Origin: Flavobacteriaceae bacterium
Lineage (GTDB): Bacteria > Bacteroidota > Bacteroidia > Flavobacteriales > Flavobacteriaceae
Assembly (NCBI GenBank): GCA_965224465.1
Contig: OZ245049.1
Span: 3,870,001-3,902,000, forward strand
Direction: 5' to 3'
DNA length: 32,000 bases
The notes below the pieces were generated by a model. The model saw only the letters and a list, made by a program, of their open reading frames with translations. It was not told the origin of the DNA and made no database searches. This document shows, piece after piece, positions 2,344 to 32,000 of the stretch. Each line of letters starts with the position of its first letter. The first letter of the stretch is position 1. The position numbers and the translations under genes are program-made.

Positions 2344-3720
2344 CTATTTTTTTTGTGGAGATTTGTATTTGACAGGTTTGTTTTCCATCAGTTGTTTATG
2401 GATGTAATAATTAACGTCCATCCAAGCTTTACTTTCTTCCCAAAGTGGAGCAATCATATTGTGTTCCCAGTTTTTTAGTTGATTTGAGAGTAATTTAAAT
2501 CTGATACTATCGCTGTTAGATAAATTAGTGATTTCTCCTAAATCGTTCTTAAGGTTGTACAACCTACTTCCGTAATTTCTCATTCGAATCATCTTAAAAT
2601 CTCCATACCTAATCGCTGCCTTGTCTAACTTTCTCCAATACAATTGTTGATGTGGGTTTCCTTGCTTTTTGTTTTTTAAATAAGGAAGTAAACTAATGCC
2701 ATCCAAAATTTGCCCCGCTTCTTTTTCAATACCTGCAGCATCCAATGATGTAGCAAAAATATCCAAGGAAGAACTAAGTCCAGAAAAATTTTTGTTAGGA
2801 GACAAAACCAACGGCCAACTAATGATAAAAGGAACTCTGTGTCCTCCTTCAAATTTGTTCCCTTTCCATCCTTTTAAGGGGCCTGTTTTTGATGTATTGG
2901 TACTGGCGCCTCCATTATCACTTAAAAAATAAATAAGTGTATTGTCTAATAGGTTTAACTCTTTTAGTTTAGCTCTTAGTTTTCCTATGTTCTCATCTAA
3001 AGACCATGTCATGGCAGCTAATTTTTGACGTGGGTGGTTTTTGTATTTTTCTAAATGTATGGCTTTTGCATCCATTGGAGTATGTACTGCATTAAATGAT
3101 ACGTACATAAAAAAAGGATGCTTTTGGTGTTTGTCTATGTATTGTACTGCATATGTTCCTAGTTTATCGGTAAGGTATCCGTCAAAAATTACGCGTTTTC
3201 CATTGTGTTGGAGCATGGTGTTCTTGGAAGGAGTTTTAAGCGGGAAATAAGACCTGCTTCCTCCTAAAAAACCATAAAAATCGTCAAAGCCTCTATTGTT
3301 GGGGTGGTCGCTGACTGTACTTCCTAGATGCCATTTTCCGATGGCAACTGTATGGTACCCGTTTTTATTTAAAACATCAGCCATTGTTCTTACATTGTCA
3401 CTTAAGCCGATGTCTTCTGACCCAGATCCATTGGCTTCAAAACCAAATCGCTGTTGGTACTTTCCCGTAAGTAATCCTGCTCTAGATGGCGCGCAAACAC
3501 TTGCACTTACATGGGCATCTGTGAAAACAGTTCCGTTTTTTGCGATTTTGTCTATTTCGGGTGTGTCTAAATCTTCAGAACCCATAAAACCAAAATCTAC
3601 AAACCCAGCATCGTCTATTAAAATGATAATAATATTTGGTTTCTGAACCGCGGGTTTTTTATGCGTACATGTTAAAAATAAAAGACTAATTAGAATGATT
3701 GAAATTGAATGTGAGGTCAT
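2344..3720 (-). CDS. Arylsulfatase-family (formylglycine-dependent) sulfatase, lipoprotein
   Basis: 458-aa ORF with the Cys-type sulfatase signature CAPSRAGLLTGK, an N-terminal DD metal-binding motif (IILIDDAGF), GKWHLG, and lipoprotein signal LLFLTC. Confidence 0.92.
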   Translation of the reverse strand: MTSHSISIILISLLFLTCTHKKPAVQKPNIIIILIDDAGFVDFGFMGSEDLDTPEIDKIAKNGTVFTDAHVSASVCAPSRAGLLTGKYQQRFGFEANGSGSEDIGLSDNVRTMADVLNKNGYHTVAIGKWHLGSTVSDHPNNRGFDDFYGFLGGSRSYFPLKTPSKNTMLQHNGKRVIFDGYLTDKLGTYAVQYIDKHQKHPFFMYVSFNAVHTPMDAKAIHLEKYKNHPRQKLAAMTWSLDENIGKLRAKLKELNLLDNTLIYFLSDNGGASTNTSKTGPLKGWKGNKFEGGHRVPFIISWPLVLSPNKNFSGLSSSLDIFATSLDAAGIEKEAGQILDGISLLPYLKNKKQGNPHQQLYWRKLDKAAIRYGDFKMIRMRNYGSRLYNLKNDLGEITNLSNSDSIRFKLLSNQLKNWEHNMIAPLWEESKAWMDVNYYIHKQLMENKPVKYKSPQKK

Positions 3721-9955: not shown

Positions 9956-10900
9956 CTAAAATTTAATGTTGTAGCGTGATTTTAATGCTGAAATCTTTTG
10001 TTCAAGTGACGTTGTAAATTGTTGATGTTGTTTAGAGTCAGGATTAAAGGGTCTGTGATTTAATCCTTTTTGGATTGTTGCTACCTCTTTTTGAATGCTT
10101 GCTGTTTTTGGATGTATCCAAACGTGGGAAAACTGTTCCCAAATATATTGAATTGCAGTATTGCTAGGATGGAGCATATCGGAAGTGTAAAATCTATAAT
10201 CACGTAAATCGTCCATCATAATTTCAAAAGAGGGGAAGTAGTGTATGTTATTTTTTTCTGATATTAAGGAGTGAATCCCCGCTATTAAATGTGCCTTACT
10301 TCGTGAGTTTTCTACAAATCCATCCTTTAAATGTCGAATGGGACTCACGGTGAAAATAATTTCTATGTTTGGGTTGATATCCTTTGTCAAGGATGTAATT
10401 GCATGTAAGGATGCAGAAATTTCATCAACAGTCAATAATTCTTTTATAAATTGTTTCTGAGGTATTTTGTGACAGTTACCAACAATTTGATCCTTGGCGA
10501 TATAACGATATACCCAAGCAGTACCAAGTGTAATAATAAGGTGGCTCGCTTTTTCTAAAGCAATTTTAGTGGTTTTTATTTGATGATTTAAAGTACTTAA
10601 TAATTGACGTAGGTCTACAGAACTCAAATCCGAATGTGCATCAAAACTATGCCATCGCTCGTTGGAGAAAAACACGTCATTCTCGGTATATACTTTTTGA
10701 TGAATACTGTTTGTAATGATGGTTTCTAGCGCCTTTGGATTGAATAAAATTCCAAAAGGATTGCTTTGAGTATTGAATTTAAAGTAGGTGAGTTTTTTAC
10801 TGATGTTTTCCGTAAAACAAGATCCAAATAAGAGGATGTTCGATTGGTAATCTATTTGATTCGTATTCGGTATACCTGTTATTTGGGTTCTGAATTCCAT
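9956..10900 (-). CDS. GSCFA-domain protein
   Basis: 314-aa ORF whose N-terminal LLFGSCFTENI contains the eponymous GSCFA-family motif. I recall this gene being commonly adjacent to alaS in Bacteroidota. Confidence 0.85.
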   Translation of the reverse strand: MEFRTQITGIPNTNQIDYQSNILLFGSCFTENISKKLTYFKFNTQSNPFGILFNPKALETIITNSIHQKVYTENDVFFSNERWHSFDAHSDLSSVDLRQLLSTLNHQIKTTKIALEKASHLIITLGTAWVYRYIAKDQIVGNCHKIPQKQFIKELLTVDEISASLHAITSLTKDINPNIEIIFTVSPIRHLKDGFVENSRSKAHLIAGIHSLISEKNNIHYFPSFEIMMDDLRDYRFYTSDMLHPSNTAIQYIWEQFSHVWIHPKTASIQKEVATIQKGLNHRPFNPDSKQHQQFTTSLEQKISALKSRYNIKF

Positions 10901-11047
10901 GGAATTGTTTTTTATGTACTTATTGCGAGGCTATGCCGAAGCAATTTGACTTGTTTGATGCAATTCTGAACGCCATCCTCATCTATTCTGGGCAGCGTTC
11001 TTTGCAATAATTCGATTTGTCTCGCAATGTCAAAGTCTTGTGTCTCA

Positions 11048-13672
11048 CTATTCACTAAGATACTCAATTGCTTTTTCCAATGCAGCAGGGATCCCAGCAG
11101 GATTTTTACCGCCAGCAGTAGCAAAGAAAGGTTGGCCACCGCCGCCTCCATGAATCAGTTTTCCGAGTTCTCGAACTACGGTTCCAGCGTGTATATCGCT
11201 TGATTTTGCTAATGCCTTAGAAACAAAACAAGTCAACATTGCTTTTCCGTCTTTTTCAGTCGCGGCTAAGAAAAATAAATTATCTACTTCGCTTCCTATT
11301 TCAAACAGTAAATCTTTAATATTACTTTGGTCTAGATCAAGTTTTTTAGCGATAAAATTGATGCCATTTACGGTTTTAATTTCTTGAATTAAAGTGCCTT
11401 TTAAATGGGTTGCTTTTTGTTTTAATAAGCTTTCTACTTGTTTTTTAAGTGTGGAGTTTTCCTCTTGTAATGATTTCACATTTTTGATTGGAGCATCATT
11501 GTTTTTGAACAGGTCTTTAATTTCCACATAATCTCTTGTGTTATTAAAGAAGAACGTTTTACTAGCTTCGGCAGTAATGGCTTCGATACGTCTAATTCCA
11601 GCAGCAACACCCCCTTCTGAAGTGATTTTAAAATGCCAAATGTCACTGGTGTTTTGTACGTGGATACCTCCACATAATTCCATGGATTGACCAAAGCGGA
11701 TGGCGCGTACTTGATCGCCGTATTTTTCGCCAAATAACATGATAGCGCCTTCTTTTTTTGCGTCTTCTATAGGGATATTTCTAAATTCTTCTAGGGGTAG
11801 TTTCCCTGTAATACGTGCATTTACAAAATCTTCAATTTCTAAAATTTCGGTATTGGTCAATTTGGCAAAGTGAGAAAAATCAAAACGTAAGTTTTTGGCA
11901 TTTACAGAAGAACCTTTTTGTTCGATATGTTCTCCTAAAATGGTTCTTAAAGCTTGGTGTAATAAATGCGTTGCCGTATGATTACAAGCACTTAAAAAAC
12001 GTTGATTTTTATCTACAACTACATGTAGCTTTTCTGTAATCGTATTTGGTAGGTGTTTTGTGAAATGTATGATGAGGTTGTTTTCCTTTTTCGTGTCAAT
12101 AATGTAAATAACATCACTATTAGGAATCTCTATATATCCTTTACTTCCTGCTTGTCCACCTCCTTCTGGGTAAAAGGGCGTTTTATCAAACACAAGTTGG
12201 TACATGTCGCCTGCTTTTTTAGTGGAAATTCTTCTGTATCGGAGTACTTTTACATCTGCTTTTGTAGTGTCATACCCAATAAATTCAGCATCTAAAGTAT
12301 CATCTAGAATCACCCAGTCATCAGTTTCTATGGTAGAAGCTGCTCTAGAGCGTGTTTTTTGTTTTTGAAGTTCTTCATTAAACGTTTTTTCATCCAAGGA
12401 CAATCCTTTTTCAGAAAGAATTAAAGCGGTTAAATCTATTGGGAAACCGTAGGTGTCGAACAATTCAAAAGCTTTTTTTCCAGAAACTTCGTTGCCCTTA
12501 GTGCCGTCAATAATTTTGTCTAATAAAATAAGTCCTTGCCCTAATGTACGTAAAAAAGAGGCTTCTTCTTCTTTTATTACATTGGTTACTAGTTGTTTTT
12601 GAGTGACTATTTCTGGGAATGTTTCTCCCATTTGATGGCTCAATACTTCAACCAATCTGTAAATAAATGGTTCTTTTTGATTCAGAAATGTAAAACCATA
12701 ACGGACAGCACGTCTTAAGATACGACGGATTACATATCCAGCTCCTGTATTAGAAGGTAGCTGACCATCGGCAATAGCAAAAGCCACGGCGCGCACGTGA
12801 TCCGAAATAACGCGGATAGCAATGTCAGATTTTTCACTGTCCTCTCCCTGTTCATAAACCGTATTTGTAATGGTTTCTACTTCTCTTATTAAAGGGCTGA
12901 AAACATCGGTATCGTAGTTGGATTGTACCTTTTGCATTACCATGCATAAACGTTCAAATCCCATTCCTGTATCTACGTGTTGTGCAGGTAAATCTTCGAG
13001 ACTTCCGTTTGCTTTTCTGTTAAATTGCATAAATACCAAGTTCCAGATTTCAACCACTTGTGGGTGGTCCATATTTACTAGTTCACGACCAGGTACTTGT
13101 GCTTTTTCTGCTGCAGAACGTATGTCAACATGTATTTCAGAACAAGGGCCACAAGGTCCCTGAGCACCCATTTCCCAAAAGTTGTCTTTTTTGTTTCCTA
13201 AAATTATTTGATTTTCTGGAACAATGTTTTTCCATAAGTCATACGCCTCTTGGTCAAAAGCTAGATTTTCGTCTTTGGCTCCTTCAAAAACAGAAACGTA
13301 TAAGCAGCTTTTATCTATTTCTAAGACATCTGTCAAAAATTCCCACGCCCATTCGATGGCTTCTTTTTTGAAGTAATCACCAAAACTCCAGTTTCCTAAC
13401 ATTTCGAACATAGTATGGTGGTAAGTATCCATACCTACCTCTTCTAAATCGTTGTGTTTTCCAGAAACTCGCAAACATTTTTGAGTATCAGATACACGTT
13501 TGATTTCGATTTTTCGTTGCCCTAAAAAGAATTCTTTGAACTGATTCATTCCTGCATTGGTAAACATCAATGTAGGATCATCTTTTATAACTATTGGAGC
13601 AGAGGATACTAACGTATGTTGTTTTGACTTAAAAAAATCTAAAAATTGCTTTCTTACTTCTTGTGATTTCAT
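11048..13672 (-). CDS. alaS: Alanine--tRNA ligase
   Basis: 874-aa ORF with class II AlaRS motifs: [28 protein letters not shown]. The editing domain shows [12 protein letters not shown] and CGGIHV, and the C-terminal DHHA1 region shows GGGGGQP. Confidence 0.98.
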
Positions 13673-13927
13673 AAATGATATTCATTATTCCTACTTTTTA
13701 GGTAGGTTTCGGAACATATCCGAGTGTTACTGTGTTGATGCTATTGTTTATCTTGTCAGATTAAGGATGTGAAGCCCTAATGTCATATGAAATAAACGTT
13801 AATTTCCTATTAAAAAACAAAAGCGAATGTTCGGTTCTAAAACATTTTGTATTTTTGTATTTAATGATCAAAGCAATATTAAATTAAATGACTACTTTTA
13901 ATATGCGAAAATAATATAAATTATACA

Positions 13928-14899
13928 ATGGCAAAAGTAAAATATTATTATGACTCTGAAACCTTATCTTATCGAAAAATAAAGGATAAAAAGAGACACA
14001 AGTTTGCGAGATTAGGATTGACTATTGTTACAGCTGGTATTTTTATGGTACTTGGTTTTGTTGTGCTTACCCCTGTTTTTGAGTCGCCTAACGAAAAGAA
14101 ATTGAAACGAGAATTGGAATATGTAAAACTCAATGAAGAATTACATGGAAAAAAACTGGTTCAATTAGAAAAAGTTTTAGAAGATTTACAAGTAAGAGAT
14201 AACAATATTTACCGTGTTTATTTTGAATTGAATCCTATTTCAAATGATAAAAAGGCAGCAGGGTTTGGAGGAGTGAATCGGTATAAATCATTGGAAGGAT
14301 TTGATAATTCTGAAATGATAATTGGAGTTTCTAAGAACATGGATATTTTGGCAAAACAATTGTACATGCAGTCAAAATCCTTAGATGAAATTGTTAGTTT
14401 GGCAGAGAAAAAAGAAGAGTTATTAGCCGCTATGCCAGCAATCCAACCTGTTAGGAAAGAAAATTTGACACGCATGGCTTCTGGGTACGGATGGCGTTCT
14501 GACCCGTTTACAAAGGCTCGGAAAATGCATAAAGGAATGGATTTTACAGCTCCTAGAGGTACTCCTGTGTATGCCTCTGGTGATGGGGTAGTTGTGAGAG
14601 CTGATAATAATTCTAGTGGATATGGAAAACACATTCGTATAAATCACGGATTTGGCTATTTATCCTTGTACGCGCATTTAAGTAAATACAATACAGTAAA
14701 AGGAAAGCGTGTGAAACGTGGTGATTTAATCGGGTTTGTAGGGAATACAGGACGGTCTCAAGCACCTCATTTACATTATGAAGTACATAAAAATGGAAAG
14801 GCAATTAATCCTATCAATTTTTATTCAGGTAATTTAACTCCCGAAGAATTTGTGGCCATGCAAAAAGCAGCACAAATAGAAGGACAATCTTTAGACTAA
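13928..14899 (+). CDS. M23-family metallopeptidase
   Basis: 323-aa ORF with an N-terminal TM helix, a coiled-coil region, and LytM-type motifs HKGMDF, GYG..I.I.H and HLHYEV. Confidence 0.92.
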   Translation: MAKVKYYYDSETLSYRKIKDKKRHKFARLGLTIVTAGIFMVLGFVVLTPVFESPNEKKLKRELEYVKLNEELHGKKLVQLEKVLEDLQVRDNNIYRVYFELNPISNDKKAAGFGGVNRYKSLEGFDNSEMIIGVSKNMDILAKQLYMQSKSLDEIVSLAEKKEELLAAMPAIQPVRKENLTRMASGYGWRSDPFTKARKMHKGMDFTAPRGTPVYASGDGVVVRADNNSSGYGKHIRINHGFGYLSLYAHLSKYNTVKGKRVKRGDLIGFVGNTGRSQAPHLHYEVHKNGKAINPINFYSGNLTPEEFVAMQKAAQIEGQSLD

Positions 14900-15231
14900 T
14901 GCTGATAGACCTTCCAGAAAAACGCTATTATAAAATAGGAGAAGTAGCAAAGGCTTTTAATGTAAACACTTCCTTGATTCGCTTTTGGGAAAAAGAGTTT
15001 GATGCTTTAAAACCTAAAAAAAATGCCAAAGGAAATCGTTTATTTACGAAGGATGATGTTAAAAATCTAGAATTGATTTATAATTTAGTAAAAGAGAGAG
15101 GCTTTACCTTGGAAGGTGCAAAAAATAAGTTAAAAAAACAACCTAATAAAACGGTGCACAACCATGAAATAGTTTTGAGATTGGAAAAAATTAAAGCAGA
15201 ATTGATAACCATAAAAAATCAATTGTCTTAG
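14899..15231 (+). CDS. MerR-family transcriptional regulator
   Basis: 110-aa ORF with the HTH YYKIGEVAKAFNVNTSLIRFWEKEF. Its start overlaps the M23 stop (TAATG), which suggests coupling. Confidence 0.88.
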   Translation: MLIDLPEKRYYKIGEVAKAFNVNTSLIRFWEKEFDALKPKKNAKGNRLFTKDDVKNLELIYNLVKERGFTLEGAKNKLKKQPNKTVHNHEIVLRLEKIKAELITIKNQLS

Positions 15232-15305
15232 GATTTCTTAGGGAAGATGTAACTACTTTCGTTTTTTTGGGTCTTATAAAATAAATCAATTAAAATAAAA
15301 TAATT

Positions 15306-23360: not shown

Positions 23361-23433
<73 letters not shown>

Positions 23434-23442
23434 CTAAGCGGA

Positions 23443-25053: not shown

Positions 25054-28000
25054 ATGGAAAGAAACAAGGCTCTCGAAACTTACCAAAAAGAAGCTTACAA
25101 TCAAGATCTAGCTACCTATACTTTTACAGTAGAAGTAGCAGGGAAGACATCTGATGAACGAGCAGAATTAAAAGTGAAAAAACCAGGTATTAATTTACAC
25201 TTTTTAAGGTATGGTATTTTTAGTCCACGATGGTATTATAAAACATCTTTTATTGATGTACATGCTCCAAATCTAAGTAAACCCTACGAACCTTTTCCCG
25301 TAGATAATGATCCTGAACTTATAAACCCCAACGACCCCATAGAACTTGATGAGGTTTTTGTAACAGCTGAAAGAAAAGTTCCTGCTCCATCAAGTAAAGC
25401 AAGTAAACTAAATACAGCACAGTATCGAATTACAGGAATCAATGAAGGTTATATTTATGTTCACGAAGAAGGTAAAGAAAACTTTTGGTTAGAATTTGCT
25501 GTAGATATTTATGGTTTTTTGCATCCTATTTTATGGGAACAAAATATAAATAAAGATGGAACATATAAAGATATAAGAGAGAAAATAAGTGATAAAAATC
25601 TTACCTCATACATCATAAAGGAAGGTGCAAAAATATGGGTTACATTATCTCAATCTCAATTGTCTACAAAACAATTACAAGAATATGCTAATAATCCAGA
25701 TAATTTTGATAGGCTACAATCCTTAACTTGTAATCCCATTGAAAAAATATCTGATTTAACAGAACGTAAAGAAAAATGCTATAGGTCCTTTAAAGAATTT
25801 ACTGCCTCATATACTGTTTATGAAGAAGACAATGCTAAAATATTACAATCTAGATTAGAACATATTTCAAAATTAGAATATCCTGAAAATAGAGAAGAAG
25901 AAGATGCTACCTTTGAAGACCTGTTTATTCTTTTAGAAGACCCCGTACAGTGTGCTAATGATTTAGCTACCGTTATTGATGGAGAAATGGCATGGTTAAA
26001 AGCTTTGAAGGATACTTTAAAAATAGGGAAATCTGCTTATGACGTGTATGATAAATTAATGAAGTTACCTGTTTATAATAATAGTACTATTAAAGTATCG
26101 CCAGAAGAAGCCGAAGAAATTAGCTATATTTTTGCATTAGCACTTACTACCTATAAGTTTATTTATGATAATGAAGAATTAAAAGACGATTTTAGTCGAA
26201 AACATGGTGAATGGTATTTAAATCGTGGCATAGATGACGAAAAACTAGACAAAATATTAGGGATTACACAGCGTAAAAATCAGCGTTGCCTAATCAATAA
26301 ATTGCGTGATGATTTAGGTAATTTTTTGAAAAGTGAGTATTATAACACTGCACTTAATGACTTTAAGCAAGGGTCATACCCAATGAAAGAAAGTGGTAAA
26401 GATATTATTGCTGGTCATTTAGGAACACTAGTAGTACACCCTACTATGGTAGATAGGCATTTATTGCTAACCAGTGAATACAAACCCTACGAAGATAAAT
26501 GGATAAAACAAGTACGTAAAACCATTACAGGGAATAGTGATTTTACAGCAATAAATGAACTTTTAAATATCCGTATTCCTATTAATGAGGTTGAACAACA
26601 AGATAGCAATGCTAATATTTATGCAGTCAAATTTTGTAAAAAATTCTTAAGCCATTTTGGTAAAATGACCAAAGCGTACATTGGGGTTGGCGCATTAAGT
26701 GCTACCGAAATTAAATTGGTAGACACTAAAGTAAACTATTTAAATTCCATTTCTAAAGGTGGAAAAGAAGGTCCTTTTTTTAAGATAAACCGCAAAGATT
26801 TTTTAAGAACTGCTGGTTTTGAAAAATATAAAAAGTACAGAAGTAGCAGTCACAACCACTTTACTAAAACCTATGCTTTTTTAAAAATACATGAAGAGGT
26901 ATTAAAAGAAAGTAAAGATATTGCACGTAGAACAGGTTTGGGAAAAGAAACTTCCATTGTGGTACAAGGGCGTGATCGTTTGAAGTTTTCTAAACAGCTA
27001 GAAAAAATGGTGCAAAGCCCTGAGTATAAATCGGCAGTACTCGTTTTTGAAATTTGGGCGCTTATCTCTTCTGTAGAGAAAGGAAATAAAAATGGATGGG
27101 GTTTAAATTCGAAAATAAGCCTTGGAGGAGCAATTGTAAAAACTACTGCGTCGAGTTTGAAGCTAGTTGAAGAATTTGATAAAATAAGAGGAATACAAAG
27201 AACCGATTTATTTAAAACTACAACTAAATATTTTAGTGTGGCAGGTTCCGCTTTTACAGTCTATTCAGCAACCAAAGATATGGTAAAAGCAATAAATGTC
27301 AATGATAATGATGCTGCATTGGCTTATAGTGTAGCTGCAGGGATTAGTGGGTGTTTATTAGCGGCAGAATTAGGCATTATAGCTCTTTCTACAGGGCCAT
27401 TTATTGTAGTAGCAGGTATTGGGATGCTGGTCTATGGTTTAGCTTATTATTTAACCGATAGTGATTTGGAACAATTTTTTAAGCATTACCCTTTTAGTAC
27501 CCAAATGACACATGCTACTACAAGTGATAATCCTTTTTTGTATGCGCGTGCAATGTATAAGCAACGTGATATACTTATTAAACGTTGGGAGTCTAAATAT
27601 ATGGATAGTAATAATAATACATACAAGCATCTTTTTGTAAGACTCACTAATTTATTAGCTGGAGGTATGCTTAAAATAGAAGGTAGTTCAAATCCACACT
27701 CTAAAAATGATAGAGGACATTATTTAAGTGAATCCGGGAGAAATAATGGAATTGTTCCAAATTCAGAGCTTTGGATTTCTATGGATATCCAAATCTCTTT
27801 TGCATCCTTTTTGCAAAACCAAAATCAAATTGAATATGAAGTGTACTTACTACAGAAAAAAGACCTTTTTTCTAAAACCATAAGTTACCGTATTCCCAAT
27901 AGAAAATTACAACCCTTTATGATAAAAAAAGATAATGGGACGCAACAACTGCAATTATGGTTACAAATCCCTAGATACTTAGAAGTTAAAGTTACAACAC

Positions 28001-28287
28001 CTGTAAAACAATCTGCCAATATTTCGGTTATGCTACAACAAACCCGTAAAACTACTAAAAAAGTAACTATACAACCAGATGCGAAAATTGCAGTATTGTG
28101 CAAATTTAAAGGGAATACAGAAACAATTTTCCCTTTAACACTAGACGATAAACACGGATATTTATACACCGCTATGCAAATAGGACAACGTAATGGTGAT
28201 GGTTATTTAATCCGTCGTTCTTTTGATGCCATGATTATTAAAAAAGAAGCCTTTTTAAATGCCTACCCACTTCAAAACCCTAAGTAA
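25054..28287 (+). CDS. Large putative T6SS-delivered effector, predicted membrane-targeting; function unknown
   Basis: 1077-aa ORF starting 3 nt after the PAAR stop. Hydrophobic helices cluster at aa ~660-800, including AALAYSVAAGISGCLLAAELGIIALSTGPFIVVAGIGMLVYGLAYYL. I could find no nuclease, lipase (GxSxG), peptidase or glycosidase motif. The N-terminal YRITGINEGYIYVHEEG...WLEF segment is reminiscent of VasX/BTH_I2691-class effectors, from memory and unverified. Confidence 0.75.
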   Translation: MERNKALETYQKEAYNQDLATYTFTVEVAGKTSDERAELKVKKPGINLHFLRYGIFSPRWYYKTSFIDVHAPNLSKPYEPFPVDNDPELINPNDPIELDEVFVTAERKVPAPSSKASKLNTAQYRITGINEGYIYVHEEGKENFWLEFAVDIYGFLHPILWEQNINKDGTYKDIREKISDKNLTSYIIKEGAKIWVTLSQSQLSTKQLQEYANNPDNFDRLQSLTCNPIEKISDLTERKEKCYRSFKEFTASYTVYEEDNAKILQSRLEHISKLEYPENREEEDATFEDLFILLEDPVQCANDLATVIDGEMAWLKALKDTLKIGKSAYDVYDKLMKLPVYNNSTIKVSPEEAEEISYIFALALTTYKFIYDNEELKDDFSRKHGEWYLNRGIDDEKLDKILGITQRKNQRCLINKLRDDLGNFLKSEYYNTALNDFKQGSYPMKESGKDIIAGHLGTLVVHPTMVDRHLLLTSEYKPYEDKWIKQVRKTITGNSDFTAINELLNIRIPINEVEQQDSNANIYAVKFCKKFLSHFGKMTKAYIGVGALSATEIKLVDTKVNYLNSISKGGKEGPFFKINRKDFLRTAGFEKYKKYRSSSHNHFTKTYAFLKIHEEVLKESKDIARRTGLGKETSIVVQGRDRLKFSKQLEKMVQSPEYKSAVLVFEIWALISSVEKGNKNGWGLNSKISLGGAIVKTTASSLKLVEEFDKIRGIQRTDLFKTTTKYFSVAGSAFTVYSATKDMVKAINVNDNDAALAYSVAAGISGCLLAAELGIIALSTGPFIVVAGIGMLVYGLAYYLTDSDLEQFFKHYPFSTQMTHATTSDNPFLYARAMYKQRDILIKRWESKYMDSNNNTYKHLFVRLTNLLAGGMLKIEGSSNPHSKNDRGHYLSESGRNNGIVPNSELWISMDIQISFASFLQNQNQIEYEVYLLQKKDLFSKTISYRIPNRKLQPFMIKKDNGTQQLQLWLQIPRYLEVKVTTPVKQSANISVMLQQTRKTTKKVTIQPDAKIAVLCKFKGNTETIFPLTLDDKHGYLYTAMQIGQRNGDGYLIRRSFDAMIIKKEAFLNAYPLQNPK

Positions 28288-29018
28288 TGAGTGATTTTTG
28301 GAAAAATAAACCTTTAGAAAAGGAGATACGTCATCAAATAGAGTATCACCAAATAAAACAAGAACGAATAAAGCCTAGTAAACGTTTAAATATACAAGAA
28401 GCAAATGACCTATTTTTTGTTAGGAATGTATCTAGTAATATGGGCTATGCCAAGATAAATTTTTTAACAGGTGTAGGTATTAATTTTATTATTATATTAG
28501 TTTCTCTAGGAAATGAAAAAGATGACCTTTTTGAGAATATAGGCTTAGGACTACTACCTTTCTTATTAATAAGCCTTATTTTTCTAATCATACATTTTAT
28601 GGCGCCAATAAAAGAAATAATATTAGACCGTTTACATGGCAAAATAACGTATCCTCGTTTGTTTGGTAATAAAGAACATCGTACCATACAATTTGATTCG
28701 TTGCACGTGTATGCTACTATGACCACCACTGGTGATTTTGCTGCGACAGGAAAAACAATACGTATTAAAGACAGAAAGTACAGTTATACGTGGGATTTAG
28801 AAAGTAGTAATCCAGATGAATATTGGAGTTTTATGGTGTGGTATATGGATAGGAACAGACCATTGCCTCCTGGTACTGCTTTTGATGCGTATAGGAAAAA
28901 GGACTTTGAGCGCAGAAAAACCGCTGGATTTCCTAAGCCTTTATATCCAAGCAATATAGCAACACCTGAATTTACCAAATCGCAACAAAAAGAACGGAAA
29001 TTAATTGGAGGATGGTAA
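28287..29018 (+). CDS. Putative cognate immunity protein, two-TM (paralog 1)
   Basis: 243-aa ORF whose ATG overlaps the effector stop (TAATG). Two hydrophobic helices sit at aa ~58-75 and ~85-105. The conserved C-terminal ~135 aa has no recognised motif. The immunity role is inferred from position only. Confidence 0.7.
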   Translation: MSDFWKNKPLEKEIRHQIEYHQIKQERIKPSKRLNIQEANDLFFVRNVSSNMGYAKINFLTGVGINFIIILVSLGNEKDDLFENIGLGLLPFLLISLIFLIIHFMAPIKEIILDRLHGKITYPRLFGNKEHRTIQFDSLHVYATMTTTGDFAATGKTIRIKDRKYSYTWDLESSNPDEYWSFMVWYMDRNRPLPPGTAFDAYRKKDFERRKTAGFPKPLYPSNIATPEFTKSQQKERKLIGGW

Positions 29019-29027
29019 TAAAATCGC

Positions 29028-29235
29028 ATGCAAAAATTGCCGTATTATGTAAGTTTAAAGGAAATACAGAAACTATTTTTCCTTTAACATTAGACGATAA
29101 GCAGGGTATTTATACACCGCTATGCAAATAGAACAACGCAATGGTGATGGTTATTTAATTCGTCGTTCTTTTGATGCCATGATTGTCAAAAAAACAGCCT
29201 TTTTAAATGCCTACCCACTTCAAAACCCAGAATAA
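29028..29235 (+). pseudogene. Orphan effector 3' fragment, frameshifted
   Basis: Homologous to 28078-28287 (last ~70 codons of the effector). A 1-nt deletion (gataagcagggtattt versus gatgagcacgggtattt in the next unit) breaks the frame. Confidence 0.8.
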
Positions 29236-29966
29236 TGAGTGATTTTTGGAAAAACAAACCTTTAGAAAAAGTGATACGTCACCAAATAGAGTATCACCAA
29301 ATAAAACAAGAGCGAGTAATACCAAACAAGCGCTTAGAAATACAAGAGGCAAATGACCTGTTTTTCGTAAAAAATGTATCAAGTTATATTTCTGGAGCTA
29401 AGTTGTATTTTTTTTTAGGTTTGGGTATAGTTATATTTGTTTATTTGATTACAATAGGCATGCCTAAAGAAAAAATATCATTTCCTCGATATTTAGGGTT
29501 GATTCCTTTTTTATGTATAAGTCTTATCTATTTGATTATGCATTATATGGCGCCAATAAAAGAAATAATATTAGACCGTTTACATGGCAAAATAACGTAT
29601 CCTCGTTTGTTTGGAAATAAAGAACATCGTACCATACAATTTGATTCGTTGCACGTGTATGCTACCATGACCACCACTGGTGATTTTGCTGCGACAGGAA
29701 AAACAATACGCATTAAAGACAGAAAGTACAGTTATACATGGGATTTAGAAAGTAGTAATCCAGATGAATATTGGAGTTTTATGGTGTGGTATATGGATAG
29801 GAACAGACCATTGCCTTCTGGTGCTGCTTTTGATCCGTATAGGAAAAAGGACTTTGAGCGCAGAAAAACTGCGGGATTTCCTAAGCCTTTATATCCAAGC
29901 AATATAGCAACACCTGAATTTACCAAAGCGCAACAAAAAGAACGGAAATTAATTGGAGGATGGTAA
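29235..29966 (+). CDS. Putative immunity protein paralog 2
   Basis: 243-aa ORF. Its C-terminal half is near-identical to paralog 1, its N-terminal ~44 aa are moderately conserved, and aa ~45-105 are divergent. Confidence 0.7.
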   Translation: MSDFWKNKPLEKVIRHQIEYHQIKQERVIPNKRLEIQEANDLFFVKNVSSYISGAKLYFFLGLGIVIFVYLITIGMPKEKISFPRYLGLIPFLCISLIYLIMHYMAPIKEIILDRLHGKITYPRLFGNKEHRTIQFDSLHVYATMTTTGDFAATGKTIRIKDRKYSYTWDLESSNPDEYWSFMVWYMDRNRPLPSGAAFDPYRKKDFERRKTAGFPKPLYPSNIATPEFTKAQQKERKLIGGW

Positions 29967-30184
29967 TAAAATTGCATGCAAAAATTGCCGTATTATGTAA
30001 GTTTAAAGGAAATACAGAAACTATTTTTCCTTTAACACTAGATGATGAGCACGGGTATTTATACACCGCTATGCAAATAGAACAACGCAATGGTGATGGT
30101 TATTTAATTCGTCGTTCTTTTGATGCCATGATTGTCAAAAAAACAGCCTTTTTAAATGCCTACCCACTTCAAAACCCAGAATAA
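29960..30184 (+). other. Orphan effector C-terminal fragment, open 74-codon ORF
   Basis: MVIKLHAKIAVLCKFKGNTETIFPLTLDDEHGYLYTAMQIEQRNGDGYLIRRSFDAMIVKKTAFLNAYPLQNPE matches the last ~70 aa of the 1077-aa protein. The ATG arises from the gga-tgg-taa end of paralog 2. Expression is doubtful. Confidence 0.5.
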
Positions 30185-30563
30185 TGAGTGATTTTTGGAA
30201 AAACAAACCTTTAGAAAAAGTGATACGTCACCAAATAGAGTATCATCAAATAAAACAAGAACGTATAAAACCTAATAAACGCCTAGAGATACAAGAAGCT
30301 AACGATCAATTTTTTGTAACAAATGAAACAGAAGCATTAACCGCTTTTTGGTGCTATTTTAGTATGGGTGTGGGAGGGGTGTTTTTTTTAATTATCGTAC
30401 AATACTTTGGTGTTGGGTTTGTTAATATGGTTACTTTATGGATAGGATTACCTTTTGTTTTATTAGCTTTATTTCATTTAATCATATTCTTTTTAGTACC
30501 AATAAAAGAAATAATATTAGACCGTTTACATGGCAAAATAACGTATCCTCGTTTGTTTGGTAA
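30184..30563 (+). pseudogene. Immunity paralog 3, 5' part, disrupted by IS30-family insertion
   Basis: Reads MSDFWKNKPLEKVIRHQ...ITYPRLFG and then runs into the IS (KLNSSHKRNF stop, track ORF 30184..30594). Confidence 0.85.
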
Positions 30564-31688
30564 GCTGAATTCAAGTCACAAACGCAACTTTTAGTTAAAT
30601 AATAATTGTTCCATTACAAATATAGGGTTTTGATATTTATGTCTCTTCCTAGGTCTGTTATTTAATTTTGTTTCTACCTCTTTGATTCTTTGATCTGTTA
30701 GGTTTGTAAAGTCACTTCCTTTGGCAAAATATTGTCTAATCAAACCATTTAAATTTTCGTTAGATCCTCTTTCCCAAGAGTGATATGGATGCGCAAAAAA
30801 GTAATCAATACATAAATTTTCTGCAACCTGCTCATGGCCTGCAAATTCTTTTCCATTATCAGCTGTTATAGTATGTAGATAAGGCTTCCAGTCTTCTAAT
30901 ATTTCATTGATAGCTTTAGTGACAACAACTGCTTCTTTAGAGCTTACTTTTTTCATTTTAAGCATTCCAGAAGCTCTATCATTTACGGTAAGTATGGCTT
31001 GATTATGGTTTTTACCTATGATTAAATCGACCTCTAAATCTCCAAATCGATTTCTTTGTTCAACAACTTCAGGGCGTTGTTCTATACTAATACGATTCTT
31101 TATAACCCCTCTAGAATCCTTTGATGAGCCACGTTTTCTATATCTCCTTCCCTGTCTGCGAAGGTGTGTATGTAAATCACCATCATTCCTCTTGTCTTCC
31201 CTAATATGCTGATATATACGCTCAATAGACACCGTTTCTTTACCTTGTTTTTTTAGGACACCAACTACTTGCTCAGGACTATAATCGTCTCGCAATAACA
31301 ACTCTATTGCTTGTTGAATATCTTCTGTAAAGCGTTTTCTTTTAGGCTTTTCTTTATGACGTTTAGCATACTTTTTTTGGGCTAATTCATGCTTGTAAAC
31401 TCCATTTCTTTTGTCTGAATTACGCTTAATCTCTTTGCTAATAACAGACTTGTCTTTTCCTATAGCAGCTGCTATCTCAACCTGTTTATAACCTTGTTTT
31501 AACATGCAACAAATTGTGTATCTTTGCGCTTGGGTGATGTGTTTCATACAACTTCTTTTTTCGAGATTTGAGACCGTAAGATACATATCCATCAAGACAA
31601 GAAAGGTAGGTTTTCCTACTTTTCTGTTTTGAAAATATAACCATCATAGAATCAAATCGAAAAGTTGCGTTTATTAGTTGAATTTAAG
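30564..31688 (-). mobile_element. IS30-family insertion sequence (1125 bp)
   Basis: Imperfect 29-bp terminal inverted repeats: gctgaattcaagtcacaaacgcaactttt at the left end and aaaagttgcgtttattagttgaatttaag at the right end, 23/29 matching. TAA is duplicated at 30561-30563 and 31689-31691. Removing the IS and one TAA restores ...ttt ggt aat aaa gag cat..., the sequence of the intact paralogs. Confidence 0.9.
30591..31547 (-). CDS. IS30-family transposase
   Basis: The N-terminal HTH is MKHITQAQRYTICCMLKQGYKQVEIAAAIGKDKSVISKEIKRNS and a DDE-type catalytic core follows (DLIIG...TADNGKEF...SWERGSNEN). The track ORF extends to 31595, but I prefer the ATG at 31547. Confidence 0.88.
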   Translation of the reverse strand: MKHITQAQRYTICCMLKQGYKQVEIAAAIGKDKSVISKEIKRNSDKRNGVYKHELAQKKYAKRHKEKPKRKRFTEDIQQAIELLLRDDYSPEQVVGVLKKQGKETVSIERIYQHIREDKRNDGDLHTHLRRQGRRYRKRGSSKDSRGVIKNRISIEQRPEVVEQRNRFGDLEVDLIIGKNHNQAILTVNDRASGMLKMKKVSSKEAVVVTKAINEILEDWKPYLHTITADNGKEFAGHEQVAENLCIDYFFAHPYHSWERGSNENLNGLIRQYFAKGSDFTNLTDQRIKEVETKLNNRPRKRHKYQNPIFVMEQLLFN

Positions 31689-32000
31689 TAATAAAGAGCA
31701 TCGTACCATACAATTTGATTCGTTGCACGTGTATGCTACCATGACCACCACTGGCGATTTTGCTGCGACAGGAAAAAAAATACGCATTAAAGACAGAAAG
31801 TACAGTTATACATGGGATTTAGAAAGTAGTAATCCAGATGAATATTGGAGTTTTATGGTGTGGTATATGGATAGGAACAGGCCATTGCCTCCTGGTACTG
31901 CTTTTGATCCGTATAGGAAAAAGGACTTTGAGCGCAGAAAAACCGCGGGATTTCCTAAGCCTTTATATCCAAGCAATATAGCAACACCTGAATTTACCAA
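31689..32000 (+). pseudogene. Immunity paralog 3, 3' part (continues past window end)
   Basis: In-frame continuation NKEHRTIQFDSLHVYATMTTTGDFAATGKKIRIKDRKYSYTWDLESSNPDEYWSFMVWYMDRNRPLPPG..., near-identical to paralogs 1 and 2. Confidence 0.85.

Follow-up and report, generated by a model that had tools for sequence, protein, structure and literature searches.

A mosaic array of putative immunity genes

The stretch analysed (the window) was 32,000 nt of a Flavobacteriaceae bacterium genome (assembly GCA_965224465.1, contig OZ245049.1, positions 3,870,001 to 3,902,000). It probably carried a tandem poly-immunity array, located behind the genes for a PAAR-domain protein and a VasX-like pore-forming toxin of a type VI secretion system (T6SS), and this array was a mosaic with diverse membrane hairpins set on one protein scaffold. 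Three paralogous genes followed the toxin gene, the third being interrupted by an insertion sequence (IS) element (see below). The stop codon of the toxin gene overlapped the ATG of paralog 1 (TAATG), and the array had a repeat period of 948/949 nt, composed of ~207 nt from the toxin gene 3' end plus one 732-nt paralog. The array probably continued past base 32000; at least two further family members were present on the same 5.24-Mb contig outside the window, namely P0002 (full length) and P0025 (169-aa fragment), and they had the window-type C-terminus but each with another hairpin class.

Identity pattern of the three paralogs

The nucleotide sequence comparison was applied to the three paralogs, which displayed different levels of identity along their length: (i) 86-87% over codons 1-45; (ii) 60%, 44%, and 42% for the three pairs over codons 46-106, the hairpin block; and (iii) 98% over codons 107-230 (97.6-98% over the C-terminal 415 nt, in which paralogs 1 and 2 had 10 nt differences). 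In sliding 30-nt windows, identity fell from 90-100% to 13-60% between ~28420 and 28600 and was 100% again at 28602. The breakpoints were located by a two-breakpoint max-chi-square test with 300 permutations per pair: (i) for paralogs 1 and 2 (W1/W2), 88 differences/231 nt within 28363-28594 versus 15/498 nt outside; (ii) for W1/W3, 102 differences/183 nt within 28420-28606 versus 25/504 nt outside; and (iii) for W2/W3, 104 differences/174 nt inside versus 26/513 nt outside. The observed statistic was 160-253, the largest permuted one was 27, and 0/300 permutations matched the observed value in every pair.

Nonsynonymous and synonymous divergence (dN and dS) was calculated by the Nei-Gojobori method. 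Among the window paralogs, dS was 0.07-0.10 in the C-terminal segment and 1.35-1.42 (saturated) in the hairpin, which amounted to a >10-fold difference in synonymous divergence between segments of the same genes, and thus the pattern was not a mere difference in protein constraint. The dN/dS values between hairpin classes (0.3-0.8) were left uninterpreted because dS was saturated. The 3' breakpoint of the hairpin block was razor sharp, while the 5' one was graded: only the first ~75 nt of the gene were homogenised (93-99% identity), continuous with the homogenised spacer, and codons ~26-45 had a conserved protein sequence (dN/dS 0.02-0.06) with diverged synonymous sites (dS of the N-terminal segment 0.9-1.2).

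An earlier reading of the same DNA from its letters alone (the sequence-only reading) had put the N-terminal identity of paralogs 1 and 2 at 85-90%, had counted about ten differences over ~425 nt of their C-terminal part, and had described the block in between as almost unalignable, all of which agreed with the values measured here. It had also argued from sharp identity breakpoints for recombination rather than uniform divergence, proposing a sliding-window plot and breakpoint tests, and both analyses gave non-uniform divergence; sharpness held for the 3' edge and not for the 5' edge. Likewise, its conserved ends around a cassette were recovered, but their extent had been understated, the conserved block passing the stop codon into the next paralog. 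Uniform divergence was rejected on the dS contrast together with the reciprocal incongruence of the segment trees (81-100% bootstrap; see below), and a recombinational origin of the mosaic was strongly supported by these sequence comparisons.

Hairpin classes across genomes

The family had 674 detectable members, all of them in marine Flavobacteriaceae (Aquimarina, Cellulophaga, Tenacibaculum, and others), and arrays were usual. Clustering of 36 distinct hairpin sequences gave 12 classes at 60% and 16 classes at 70% amino-acid identity; these classes recurred in different genomes and genera, and no two hairpins of one class were found within any close-subfamily array. Segments were compared in a codon alignment that comprised 19 genes of eight loci. 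Hairpins of the same class shared the following nucleotide identities: (i) 97% for W_2 and YR2_1, the latter being the first immunity gene of L002, a Flavobacteriaceae metagenome-assembled genome; (ii) 96% for L5_2 and L6_2; (iii) 95-97% for L5_3, L6_1, and L8_1; (iv) 89% for L5_1 and L6_3; and (v) 76% for W_3 and Amu_2. The hairpin class of paralog 1 was also present in P0003.

C-terminal identity was 98% inside the window, 91-98% inside the Aquimarina muelleri array, and 95-97% inside L006, while the window C-termini shared at most 84% identity with those of any other genome. The within-genome tract was thus more alike than same-class genes between genomes, which at the sequence level is the mark of concerted evolution. 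In neighbor-joining trees, the hairpins grouped by class across genomes with bootstraps of 98-100%, while the C-termini grouped by genome (window 100%, L006 100%, and A. muelleri 81%), and each of these groupings received 0% bootstrap in the other segment.

The whole PAAR-toxin-immunity modules of the window and L002 were 83% identical. W_2 and YR2_1 had flanks of 79-83% identity and a C-terminal dS of 0.93, while dS of their hairpins was 0.11; the hairpins were far younger than their surroundings, which required inter-genome transfer and recombination at the hairpin borders. The same-class hairpins across genomes had dS of 0.08-0.17 and dN/dS of 0.09-0.17, and dS of their C-termini was 0.9-1.9. 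What was transferred would be either the hairpin alone or a whole gene with its flanks later overwritten by the resident array. Within-class dN/dS of the hairpins was 0.09-0.29, and thus the hairpin sequences were held by purifying selection. The hairpins of P0004 and Amu_4 were hybrids, which suggests finer-scale reassortment of the first transmembrane (TM) helix, the loop, and the second TM helix. The same local mosaic was displayed by distant subfamilies (L001_13799 versus L001_14526, and the L016 trio).

Divergence in place by point mutation without recombination, under strong diversifying selection at the hairpin and purifying selection outside it, would fit the coincidence of the variable region with a structural module (see below). 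It was rejected as extremely improbable, since the hairpin and the C-terminus of the same genes differed in dS (1.35-1.42 versus 0.07-0.10), since a 97% identical hairpin was carried in another genome between flanks of 79-83% identity, and since the segment trees were incongruent.

Two arrays in other genomes were of different composition. In L001 (A. muelleri), a seven-gene array at 10001-15236 combined two subfamilies (four members at ~243 aa, three at 233-236 aa); upstream of it, the toxin frame was open for only 677 codons (annotated product 636 aa), and this toxin may be truncated with the immunity array kept. At 709-8436 in L022, the gene of an 888-aa protein preceded a tandem run of five 326-aa paralogs and some fragments, and these lay directly 5' of a VasX-like gene, itself truncated, and of a family member; this looked like a second, unrelated toxin/poly-immunity array.

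Homogenised block and toxin-tail remnants

The unit kept homogenised spanned ~706 nt: starting at the hairpin 3' edge, it covered the C-terminal domain with its stop codon, then the remnant of the toxin 3' end, and it reached ~25 codons into the following gene. The two repeats were 97.9% identical over this unit. The two toxin-tail remnants, overlooked in the sequence-only reading, shared 98.6% identity with each other but only ~90% with the tail of the resident toxin, and both had the identical junction with the preceding gene; therefore, this junction arose once and was then copied. Copy 1 was frameshifted by a 1-nt deletion and represented a pseudogene fragment, and copy 2 kept an open 74-codon frame. 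Toxin remnants were also found in L002 (79 nt ahead of the second gene) and L006.

Between repeats, the ~706-nt block was maintained at ~98% identity through gene conversion or unequal crossing-over, with the hairpin segment exempt from homogenisation and its ~12-16 discrete classes kept or exchanged; hairpins, or whole genes with later-overwritten flanks, moved between genomes by recombining at the conserved flanks.

Sequential displacement alone, as described for Vibrio cholerae (PMC5361080), would have each paralog arriving with its own toxin and would involve no later homogenisation, and the toxin 3'-end remnants ahead of paralogs 2 and 3, together with those of L002 and L006, are what it predicts. 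The flanks, however, should then match the hairpins in age, yet they were 98% identical with dS of 0.07-0.10; the identical junction of the two remnants indicated a single origin followed by copying; and the C-termini clustered by genome (81-100% bootstrap). Flanks of 98% identity plus identical remnant junctions therefore called for a single founding event with subsequent duplication or gene conversion. The array may have been seeded by displacement, which is very improbable as the sole explanation, the mosaic being beyond its reach.

In arrays of other genomes that had 36-nt spacers, nothing more than the terminal ~35 nt of the toxin gene was kept. L006 carried an orphan array at 3200-3416, in which the last ~75 toxin-gene codons were followed by three intact paralogs, with unrelated sequence upstream.

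Protein structure and membrane topology

An AlphaFold2 (AF2) model was built from a 47-sequence alignment, with a predicted local distance difference test (pLDDT) score of 84 and a predicted template modelling (pTM) score of 0.79. It contained strands at residues 36-47, helices at 51-73 and 81-105, a beta-rich part at 110-172, and three further helices. The 243 residues were thereby modelled as a soluble domain (strands ~36-47 plus residues ~107-243) and a hairpin (~48-105): in the model the variable block coincides exactly with the helical hairpin, which projects from a single soluble domain formed by the residues on either side. Hydropathy analysis agreed with this hairpin, and the assignment of the variable block to a membrane hairpin in the sequence-only reading was thus borne out by the two predicted helices. 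The distribution of positive charges placed the soluble domain and both hairpin ends probably in the cytoplasm.

The soluble domain was by far the most conserved part of the family, with W185, M187, D188, N190, R191, P192, L193, P194, and other residues invariant. The paralogs matched no Pfam family, and neither a PDB sequence search nor a Foldseek search against PDB returned a significant match to the immunity protein; Foldseek yielded several weak matches to PH domains at E 0.5-2, and a PH-like fold of the soluble domain is not claimed.

Toxin, probable immunity function, and possible hairpin specificity

The toxin matched VasX_N (PF20249) with 41.9 bits versus a gathering cut-off of 27, and it partially matched NCBIfam BTH_I2691_fam (residues 648-817) with 59.3 bits, below the 150-bit cut-off. 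By these matches it is a divergent representative of the VasX/BTH_I2691 family with predicted pore formation, and its hydrophobic helices were located at about residues 755-800 in the C-terminal half. The toxin-immunity synteny was repeated in L002, L004, L005, L007, L008, and L024-L026, and tssD was found close to the homologous module in A. muelleri. The NCBIfam model for Bfi2 (NF053700), an immunity protein of Bacteroides fragilis, was matched by 24/47 family members at E <= 0.01 (best E 5.6e-7), the similarity spanning the second TM helix plus the start of the soluble domain; paralogs 1 and 2 scored 16.4 and 19.8 bits, respectively, versus a 350-bit cut-off, and thus the window proteins belonged to a separate family with remote similarity only. 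An immunity function of the paralogs is likely because of the position directly after the toxin gene with translational coupling, the predicted membrane localisation, the array formation, and the similarity to Bfi2. Acting as immunity proteins, the paralogs would meet the toxin in the membrane with the hairpin as the only contacting part, and each array would represent a set of different toxin-neutralising hairpins directed against resident plus non-kin toxin variants.

The hairpin as the determinant of specificity is plausible and still open, with the balance leaning somewhat against it. A portable specificity module resembling CdiI (see below), set in a cytoplasmic scaffold and exchanged among marine Flavobacteriaceae via conserved borders, is offered as a tentative proposal. 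Equally speculative is its extension to the whole array, which would then serve as a combinatorial library against VasX-family toxin variants, gene conversion keeping the borders homologous and the hairpins swappable. The sequence-only reading had proposed a repertoire of specificities on a common scaffold; its mosaic stood and its immunity role was reasonable, while the repertoire remained unproven, both correlations given below being non-significant.

Several points weighed against mosaic immunity with hairpin-borne specificity. The immunity function of the family is one that we infer, and the membrane topology was derived solely from charge counting. Homogenisation was not universal, as C-termini of L005 and L002 were just 78-86% identical, and the distant-subfamily array L014 had two near-identical copies, hairpin included. 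Transfer of the cassette alone and transfer of the whole gene with flank conversion were inseparable on these data. Ten toxin-immunity loci were compared, and Mantel tests were applied to nine of them (L26 being omitted as a duplicate of L5), a small sample confounded by phylogeny, to which a metagenome scan, returning five short contigs only, added no further locus: hairpin similarity was not correlated with that of toxin residues 736-830 (r = -0.18, p = 0.79), and with that of the toxin patch 661-735 it displayed a weak, non-significant trend (r = 0.27, p = 0.08). Among T4, L24, L5, L7, and L8, toxin residues 736-830 were 96-100% identical, while the adjacent hairpins were 16-52% identical, and in several of these loci the adjacent immunity gene was the sole close-family paralog.

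Strong variation across loci was confined to one stretch of the toxin, the patch at residues ~661-735 (~27034-27258), with 49-75% identity versus 75-100% around it; the patch lay within the helical membrane-active region and contained a 38-residue coiled insertion in L004 and L024. The toxin hydrophobic helices barely varied, and therefore the determinant, if the hairpin sets specificity, would be this patch or would lie outside these toxins; within these toxins, the patch is the sole candidate for a partner of the hairpin in specificity.

The hairpin could instead be a membrane anchor only, with neutralisation performed by the soluble domain and with the classes being old, equivalent relics that gene-conversion tracts cannot cross. 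This would agree with the near-identical toxin helices at loci with unrelated hairpins, the non-significant covariation, and the soluble domain with its invariant residues being the most conserved part of the family. It is nevertheless considered rather unlikely: within-class dN/dS indicated that specific hairpin sequences were maintained, the classes persisted across genera and were never doubled in close-subfamily arrays, and several intact paralogs were kept per genome; moreover, the soluble domain is probably cytoplasmic, while VasX-type toxins act from the periplasm (PMC12718326), and there is an experimental precedent for specific immunity by a hairpin alone (PMC11630599).

Locus organisation

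The features of the window are listed in Table 1. The genes upstream of the PAAR-toxin-immunity module were housekeeping genes (alaS, der, era, and iPGM), and therefore the module was an auxiliary one rather than a core T6SS cluster; the homologous modules in L001 and L002 had neighbourhoods different from that in the window. The tRNA-Met gene was located ~900 nt 5' of the PAAR gene, with era, der, and alaS on its other side; as a matter of context, it may be an island integration site or landmark.

An IS30-family element of 1128 bp split paralog 3 after ...YPRLFG; it had 25-nt imperfect inverted repeats (30568-30592 / 31660-31684, 88% complementary) and GTAA flanking it on both sides. The transposase gene was located at 30591-31595 on the minus strand (NF033563, E 1.2e-86, 290.7 bits versus a cut-off of 80). 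Joining 30563 to 31692, i.e., removing 30564-31691, restored the reading frame of paralog 3, and with the element inside it this copy was a pseudogene. The sequence-only reading had treated paralog 3 as a truncated open reading frame (ORF), which has to be corrected: the gene was disrupted by IS30, and its C-terminal part resumed at 31692.

Table 1. Coordinates and supporting evidence of the features in the window
Feature	Coordinates	Strand	Evidence or remark
tRNA-Met (CAT)	23361..23434	+	Rfam RF00005, 64.9 bits; ARAGORN
PAAR-domain protein, T6SS spike tip, 232 aa	24352..25050	+	Pfam PAAR_motif, E 1e-26
VasX-like membrane-targeting toxin, 1077 aa	25054..28287	+	Pfam VasX_N; NCBIfam BTH_I2691_fam, partial; toxin alignments
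Putative immunity paralog 1 (W1), 243 aa, intact	28287..29018	+	ORF; 674 homologues; AF2 model, pLDDT 84
Hairpin cassette of paralog 1 (two TM helices and their loop)	28420..28606	+	Sliding windows; max-chi-square; class clustering
Homogenised block 1	28604..29309	+	97.9% identity with block 2 over 706 nt, 15 mismatches plus 1 indel
Toxin gene 3'-end remnant, copy 1	29028..29234	+	89.8% identical to 28080-28286; 1-nt deletion
Putative immunity paralog 2 (W2), 243 aa, intact, equal to P0121	29235..29966	+	ORF
Hairpin cassette of paralog 2	29368..29554	+	97% nucleotide identity to first immunity gene of L002
Homogenised block 2	29552..30258	+	C-terminal domain of paralog 2, toxin-tail remnant, first 75 nt of paralog 3
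Toxin gene 3'-end remnant, copy 2	29976..30183	+	98.6% identical to copy 1; 74-aa ORF at 29960-30184
Putative immunity paralog 3 (W3), 5' part: N-terminus, hairpin, first residues of C-terminal domain	30184..30563	+	Disrupted gene; ORF
Hairpin cassette of paralog 3	30317..30500	+	Class common to Aquimarina muelleri ACSTS3_14130, 76% nucleotide identity
IS30-family insertion	30564..31691	-	NCBIfam transpos_IS30; inverted repeats; junctions
Putative immunity paralog 3, 3' part, C-terminal domain	31692..32000	+	98% identical to paralogs 1 and 2; continues beyond the window

Comparison with known systems

Tandem arrays with homogenised flanks and a protected variable segment are known, e.g., silent pilin cassettes and surface-antigen families. 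The window array shared with these the gene-converted flanks and a short diverse segment reassorted at conserved borders, but its copies appeared to be expressed, translationally coupled, and full-length (as predicted) rather than silent donors, and it was a predicted defensive immunity system rather than one of antigenic variation. Neither a dedicated recombinase nor a recombination signal was detected for the window array.

Within the VasX family, Bti2 confers immunity to Bte2, a toxin that acts from the periplasm (PMC12718326). Bti2/Bfi2 (of the GA3 T6SS of Bacteroides fragilis, with toxins Bte2/Bfe2) and the window proteins were both encoded directly after a VasX-like toxin gene in Bacteroidota, and both are membrane proteins (by prediction for those of the window); tandem mosaic arrays were found only for the window family, none being described for Bti2 in the literature searched. 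Tke5 is bound by Tki5 in the membrane; how immunity works in the VasX family has been called unresolved (PMC13133200). Tki5/Tke5, TsiV2/VasX, and Pti2/Ptx2 have inner-membrane immunity proteins encoded after a toxin of the VasX/BTH_I2691 family (PMC13133200), as predicted for the window; no sequence relationship of Tki5, TsiV2, or Pti2 to the window proteins was detected (Pfam empty), and the cassette architecture is unreported for these pairs.

Arrays of orphan immunity genes formed by sequential displacement have been described in Vibrio cholerae and relatives (Kirchberger et al. 2017; PMC5361080). They and the window array had in common several immunity genes behind one effector gene, including duplicates of the VasX/TsiV2 type (aux-2 A) in V. 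mimicus, as well as horizontal transfer, homologous recombination, and effector-gene remnants. They differed in the unit of diversity: the Vibrio arrays contained whole genes of different families or diverged copies, whereas the window array had one homogenised scaffold with a differing 180-nt internal segment. Among the marks of displacement, the window thus displayed extra immunity genes and effector remnants, but its flanks were not as diverged as its cores; the Vibrio displacement model accounts for the toxin-tail remnants and not for the 98% identical flanks or the identical junctions.

The CdiI proteins are two-helix hairpins that give strictly cognate immunity to ionophore toxins of contact-dependent growth inhibition, as demonstrated experimentally (PMC11630599). 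Common to CdiI and the window proteins was a two-helix membrane hairpin of similar size, highly polymorphic in CdiI, a likeness by description rather than by homology comparison; the hairpin ends, cytoplasmic in CdiI, may by charge counting be so in the window proteins as well. Unlike the window hairpin, which was part of a conserved 243-aa protein, CdiI is a hairpin alone (72-100 aa), and its toxin helices co-vary with it, while the hydrophobic helices of the window-family toxin were near-invariant.

The open-access literature gave no paper on gene conversion, concerted evolution, or intragenic cassettes in immunity arrays of T6SS or polymorphic toxins, and nothing on the window family under Tenacibaculum T6SS immunity or hypervariable TM immunity arrays. 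Poly-immunity arrays and recombinational modularity are both known, and a hairpin-sized cassette that lies in a homogenised immunity scaffold and is shared between genera seems not to have been described before. Should the hairpin set specificity, the family would provide a natural chimera series for mapping the recognition of VasX-type pore formers, bacteria could build a broad defence from ~180-nt modules, and design rules for swapping immunity specificity would follow; if it has no role in specificity, the array would still be a clean bacterial case of concerted evolution with a protected segment. In the known T6SS cases a whole gene or a toxin domain is exchanged, while here the unit of diversity was a structural module inside the immunity protein.

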